64,000 nucleotides of DNA, taken from assembly GCF_024223415.1 (NCBI RefSeq), contig NZ_CP100500.1. One strand, written 5' to 3'. Origin of the DNA: Escherichia coli (GTDB lineage Bacteria; Pseudomonadota; Gammaproteobacteria; Enterobacterales; Enterobacteriaceae). Of this stretch, positions 13,421-13,743 are shown in pieces; the stretch's first letter is position 1; each line of letters begins with the position of its first letter. Position numbers and translations under genes: made by a program. The notes beneath the pieces were generated by a model, which was not told where the DNA came from, did no database searches, and saw nothing but the letters and a program-made list of their open reading frames with translations.

Positions 13421-13743
13421 ATGTCCCATCAGAAAATTATTCAGGATCTTATTGCATGGATTGACGAACATATTGACCAGCCGCTTAACATTGATGTCGT
13501 CGCAAAAAATCAGGCTATTCAAAGTGGTACCTGCAACGGATGTTCCGCACGGTGACGCATCAGACGCTTGGCGATTACATTCGCCAACGCCGCCTGTTAC
13601 TGGCCGCCGTTGAGTTGCGCACCACCGAGCGTCCGATTTTTGATATCGCAATGGACCTGGGTTATGTCTCGCAGCAGACCTTCTCCCGCGTTTTCCGTCG
13701 GCAGTTTGATCGCACTCCCAGCGATTATCGCCACCGCCTGTAG
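13421..13743 (+). pseudogene. soxS: soxS (AraC-family activator) with an apparent -1 frameshift in an A-run
   Basis: ATG 13421 opens MSHQKIIQDLIAWIDEHIDQPLNIDVVAK..., but the A-run at 13504..13509 has 6 A where the expected reading (VAKKSGYSKWYLQRMFRTV) needs 7; the frame hits TGA near 13550. The remaining SoxS sequence (MFRTVTHQTLGDYIRQRR...DYRHRL) continues in another frame to 13743. Confidence 0.8.

Follow-up and report, generated by a model that had tools for sequence, protein, structure and literature searches.

The window, the 64,000-nucleotide stretch of Escherichia coli DNA analysed here, contains the soxR–soxS locus, in which soxS is divergent from soxR and is preceded by a promoter with a SoxR box (Table 1). 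The initial annotation had proposed an intact SoxR sensor and a proper SoxR operator upstream of soxS, and both hold. The encoded SoxR has a single substitution (I40V) relative to K-12 and is the same protein as WP_000412435.1 of NCTC9112; across the soxR interval, we found no differences between the window and NCTC9112. The 85 bp separating the two genes are the same, base for base, as in a K-12 derivative. Within this intergenic region, a -35-like element (TTTACC, 13343–13348) and a -10 element (TATACT, 13368–13373) are separated by a 19-bp spacer, and the SoxR box is a perfect 18-bp palindrome, CCTCAAGTTAACTTGAGG, at 13347–13364.

Table 1. Features of the soxR–soxS locus in the window.
Feature	Position	Strand	Description	Basis
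soxR	12871..13335	-	intact, 154 aa, MerR family	ORF list; comparison with NCTC9112 and K-12
soxS promoter with SoxR box	13343..13373	+		direct reading; palindrome, spacing and identity to K-12 derivative computed
Truncated soxS frame	13421..13555	+	44-aa product	ORF list and translation
A6 homopolymer	13504..13509	+	site of 1-bp deletion	base-by-base comparison with NCTC9112, KV7 and sister lineage (all A7)
Out-of-frame soxS remnant	13540–13743	+	SoxS residues 41–107 (MFRTVTHQ...DYRHRL)	ORF list

The soxS frame opens with the ATG at 13421, where the initial annotation had also placed it, and closes after 44 codons at a TGA (13553–13555). A premature TGA had been predicted after about 43 codons; the stop is there, and only the count needed correcting. 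Direct reading of the interrupted region gives GTCGTCGC-AAAAAA-TCAGGC, confirming that the run has six adenines where seven had been expected, and GCA AAA AAA TCA has thereby become GCA AAA AAT CAG. The 44-residue product comprises 29 native SoxS codons, MSHQKIIQDLIAWIDEHIDQPLNIDVVAK, followed by 15 out-of-frame codons, NQAIQSGTCNGCSAR, and the stop. As had also been claimed, the rest of SoxS is encoded in a different frame, which opens at the internal Met41 codon and covers part of the first recognition helix together with the second helix-turn-helix (HTH).

The frameshift falls at codon 30, ahead of most of the conserved two-HTH DNA-binding domain; residues ~4–105 of the restored protein align with Rob, RamA and MarA. 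Judged from the equivalent products of other assemblies with the same split, the 44-residue piece has no Pfam match and only the 67-residue remnant does, to PF12833 (HTH_18) and PF00165 (HTH_AraC). An uninterrupted frame of about 107 codons carrying both HTH motifs is absent at the soxS position of the window. Because the frame ends after 44 codons and the second part lies in another frame, this copy is a soxS pseudogene rather than a functional member of its family.

The nearest complete RefSeq genomes to the window are NCTC9112, KV7, GPEC1446, S51, NCTC10444, SCU-316 and O78 strain 3. The two closest, NCTC9112 and KV7, are 99.95–99.98% identical to the window over 64 kb, and in a base-by-base comparison both have A7 at the soxS run and an intact, annotated 107-residue soxS. 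We then repaired the window's gene by inserting one A in its A6 run. The repaired DNA is identical to NCTC9112 soxS, and its translation matches PDB 7W5W chain J at all 107 of 107 residues (100% identity, E = 1.5e-69), so that with one A restored the gene is an orthologue of E. coli soxS. Since the repaired gene is identical to that of NCTC9112, the pseudogene has undergone no further decay, which indicates a recent change. In its locus, divergent soxR, promoter with SoxR box and restored 107-residue protein, the window thus equals the known E. coli SoxS system (AraC/XylS family, MarA/SoxS/Rob subgroup); it differs in that the frame is broken at codon 30, leaving only the 29 native residues and 15 out-of-frame ones. 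A one-base change in run length relative to the closest relatives, together with the premature TGA at 13553, is what a slippage pseudogene looks like, and these frames and the comparison with NCTC9112 and KV7 support the proposal that a 1-bp deletion in an A homopolymer truncates soxS while SoxR and its operator remain intact.

The same set of close relatives contains a second coding A-run that varies in length. A SopA-family gene on the minus strand (about 39422–41002) has A7 at 39845–39851 and is intact and effector-like in both the window and NCTC9112; in KV7, the equivalent run is A6 and the gene is annotated as frameshifted. Like the soxS case, this is a one-base change in a coding A/T run of 6–8 between very close relatives. 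The two do not differ in kind, although the window's affected gene is a global stress regulator and that of KV7 an accessory effector.

Other features of the window were noted during these comparisons. A low-GC insert of about 950 bp (29–36% GC) lies between yjcB and ssb (16044–16992) and carries an orphan 158-residue ORF on the plus strand (16313–16789). The insert is common to the window's lineage and NCTC9112/KV7, and alignments to other lineages of E. coli are interrupted precisely at 16043/16993. Its 158-residue ORF has no NCBIfam match and only a marginal PADLOC match (PbeC, E = 0.006). The window is also identical to NCTC9112 at 30362–31383, 61581–62528 and 22657–22860, where that genome's annotation lists pseudogenes: two frameshifted ones, for a DUF2713 family protein and a small hypothetical protein, and one with an internal stop, for a sugar-binding transcriptional regulator. 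Such pseudogenes are lineage-wide and unrelated to soxS.

We regard the A6 run as probably a recent, genuine loss-of-function allele that arose by A7-to-A6 slippage, leaves the clone with no two-HTH SoxS activator and would abolish induction of the regulon. The strongest competitor, which we nevertheless consider unlikely, is that the strain truly has A7 and that the homopolymer was under-called in the consensus, as occurs with 454, Ion Torrent, older nanopore and unpolished PacBio data. Runs of A7 are classic sites of such under-calling. Moreover, all A-run differences observed are contractions on the same strand. The window itself has only three 1-bp indels relative to NCTC9112/KV7 in 64 kb, each an A-run contraction (13504, 22413 and 30293).

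A closely related sister lineage allowed us to examine whether these contractions reflect errors. It was located through two rare protein alleles that it has in common with the window, XylE G276D and YjbR V104E, and is represented by GCA_044160685.1 and the Logan assembly SRR31140989. Only three differences separate it from the window in 20 kb: the soxS A, position 14360 (PdeC A325T) and position 16269. The two indels outside soxS are intergenic A-runs that each lack one base present in NCTC9112/KV7 (A5 rather than A6 at 22413–22417, and A6 rather than A7 at 30293–30298), and both shorter forms are present in the independently assembled GCA_044160685.1. They are therefore inherited polymorphisms and not errors, which argues against a homopolymer problem throughout the assembly and leaves the soxS deletion as the sole private indel in the 64 kb of the window. 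At the soxS site itself, by contrast, the sister lineage assemblies have A7, with a 107-residue soxS and PdeC A325.

The remainder of the window is likewise in order. All 22 of its A/T runs of 7 or more, including an A8, agree with the relatives. Its private substitutions relative to NCTC9112/KV7 number 14 in 64 kb; 13 are coding, and 6 of these are synonymous, a pattern of real divergence rather than of random error. With three indels in 64 kb, two of them confirmed in the sister lineage, and 6 of 13 coding substitutions synonymous, a general homopolymer error in the window can be ruled out. A mismatch-repair mutator was considered as the source of the A-run changes, but the 4 substitutions and 1 indel that separate the window from the sister lineage in ~41 kb are not a mutator signature.

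Evidence from other data for the same clone bears on the soxS run directly. Using the exact 44-residue product and the clone-specific PdeC allele, we retrieved three public read sets, which were compared as Logan contigs. The contigs of SRR19977205 (18,106 bp) and of ERR3437659 (11,975 bp), which belong to different accession series, are both 100% identical to the window, A6 included. SRR19977217 also has A6; over 16.2 kb, it shows two extra A-run contractions relative to the window, at 12441 (A6 to A5) and 17549 (A8 to A7), and 0 substitutions. These are too dense for real mutations and look like homopolymer noise, which would mean that this data set miscalls homopolymers, although a derivative strain is possible. 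PdeC A325T (window position 14360, with pdeC on the minus strand) lies near soxS and co-segregates with the split soxS in all three read-set contigs, making it a useful marker of the clone. A6 is thus reproduced in three separately assembled public read sets from two accession series. The two runs with neighbouring accession numbers are perhaps not independent data, either mutually or relative to the assembly behind the window. With A7 in the sister lineage, we consider the soxS deletion most likely restricted to one clone.

Public collections show how often this run is misread. The 44-residue product and its near-variants occur in 56, 373 and 106 contigs for the three commonest forms, with the exact 44-residue sequence accounting for the 56. 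Carriers are ~2% divergent from one another and therefore represent many different backgrounds. In most long contigs with a 44-residue SoxS, yjcE, ghxP, pdeC, uvrA, acs, ssb and other genes are also split, and most other database copies come from error-rich long-read assemblies. Because the product is found mostly amid such shattered neighbours, the soxS A7 run must be a frequent error site. The initial annotation's caution that homopolymer indels are often read errors is thus well founded in general, with a 44-residue SoxS in many error-ridden long-read assemblies, but probably does not apply here, where A6 recurs in three read sets and the window has no other private indel.

Among complete genomes, the A6 event is very rare. 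We searched 5,426 RefSeq complete genomes with 68-mers spanning the run. The window-type 68-mer matched 2,040 genomes, none of them with A6; the K-12-type 68-mer matched 3,914, of which 2 have A6, HST04 (NZ_CP013952.1) and JL05 (NZ_CP049936.1); this count of 2 is a lower bound, as the overlap between the two matched sets is undefined and B2-type haplotypes are uncounted. In both genomes, one of which is that of a K-12-derived cloning strain sold by Takara, soxS is annotated as 'frameshifted' in RefSeq. They have the same A7-to-A6 change at the same run and the same 44-codon frame as the window, on a different background (a K-12-type soxS haplotype with 3 SNPs in the 68-mer). Since HST04 and JL05 carry the identical annotated allele, the type of event and even the exact allele are already on record, and the window adds a case from another lineage. 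A literature search for natural soxS frameshifts or pseudogenes returned nothing relevant, with soxS appearing only in other contexts.

Could a broken frame still yield some SoxS? With one A lost, the sequence contains an in-frame X_XXY_YYZ heptamer, A_AAA_AAU (13504–13510), at which -1 ribosomal frameshifting at a low level, or RNA-polymerase slippage that adds an A, might restore the frame and leave a damped SoxRS response. Alternatively, re-initiation at the internal ATG (Met41, 13540), which overlaps the end of the short ORF 13 nt before its TGA, might give an N-terminally truncated fragment. We think it very improbable that the allele is leaky in either way. The RNA around the site folds somewhat more stably than shuffled sequences do (z = -2.4), but the predicted hairpin abuts the heptamer instead of lying 5–9 nt downstream, and there is no Shine–Dalgarno-like stimulator upstream in 13490–13503. 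Transcriptional slippage is efficient only in runs of about 9 or more, and any fragment begun at Met41 would be missing the first HTH. Nor is the frameshifted state conserved: the run is A7 in the sister lineages and in almost every one of the ~5,400 genomes searched. The window does resemble dnaX (A_AAA_AAG) and the Shigella mxiE T-run in having a slippery A-rich heptamer in the frame-restoring register; its heptamer differs from those sites in being unconserved, short, devoid of recognisable stimulators and the result of a recent deletion in one clone. Because the A6 state is not conserved among relatives, this is not a programmed recoding site, and with no stimulators and an overall z of only -2.4, a programmed -1 frameshift or transcriptional slippage site is ruled out.

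A related and comparably improbable proposal is that the soxS A7 run is a recurrent, selectable target, hit in this clone, in HST04 and JL05 and in several clean drafts, and that leakage at A_AAA_AAU or reversion makes A6 a damped or reversible setting of SoxRS. The least probable of all is a contingency locus whose run toggles reversibly between 6 and 7, maintaining SoxRS-on and SoxRS-off subpopulations: the identical A6 allele on many backgrounds, with ~2% divergence between carriers, would suit a site that is hit recurrently, but much of this recurrence is plainly due to assembly errors, the contigs from the three read sets run unbroken through A6 with no sign of a mixed A6/A7 population, and phase variation is ruled out by a tract of 6–7 nt, short for such a locus, and by the rarity of A6 in complete genomes (only 2 alleles among those matched, 2,040 and 3,914 of 5,426).

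The preferred reading is therefore a genuine slippage deletion, and its consequences can be traced through what is known of the regulon. In E. coli, soxS is the one gene known to be a direct target of SoxR, and how active SoxS is depends solely on its abundance. On this reading, the A7 run at codons 28–30 lost one A:T pair to replication slippage, so that translation would shift frame inside the first HTH and stop after 44 residues, with no two-HTH SoxS activator produced. SoxR would still be oxidised by redox-cycling compounds and would still switch on soxS transcription, but the mRNA would encode a non-functional peptide. The genes sodA, zwf, fpr, nfo, micF, acrAB-tolC and others would no longer be induced through SoxS, leaving only basal expression of the overlapping regulon or expression driven by MarA and Rob, which respond to signals of their own and are encoded outside the window. 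The frameshift should have no polar effect, because soxS is monocistronic and pdeC lies convergent to it. On the basis of established SoxRS biology, loss of regulon induction and sensitivity to paraquat and menadione would be expected.

As a homopolymer-slippage pseudogene, the allele is ordinary; the regulator is well known, and no new mechanism or kind of feature is involved. As the A7 run is both an occasional site of real mutation and a very common site of assembly error, soxS 'pseudogenes' in databases need to be checked against their surroundings. If the deletion is real, the redox sensor SoxR remains intact in this clone but feeds into a dead effector, and paraquat-type compounds or nitric oxide would not induce the SoxS regulon, with superoxide dismutase, glucose-6-phosphate dehydrogenase, endonuclease IV, micF-mediated down-regulation of OmpF and AcrAB–TolC at stake. 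It would then matter to those who use the strain as a wild-type reference, and would bear on the oxidative-stress tolerance of the clone, its survival in macrophages and its inducible multidrug tolerance.
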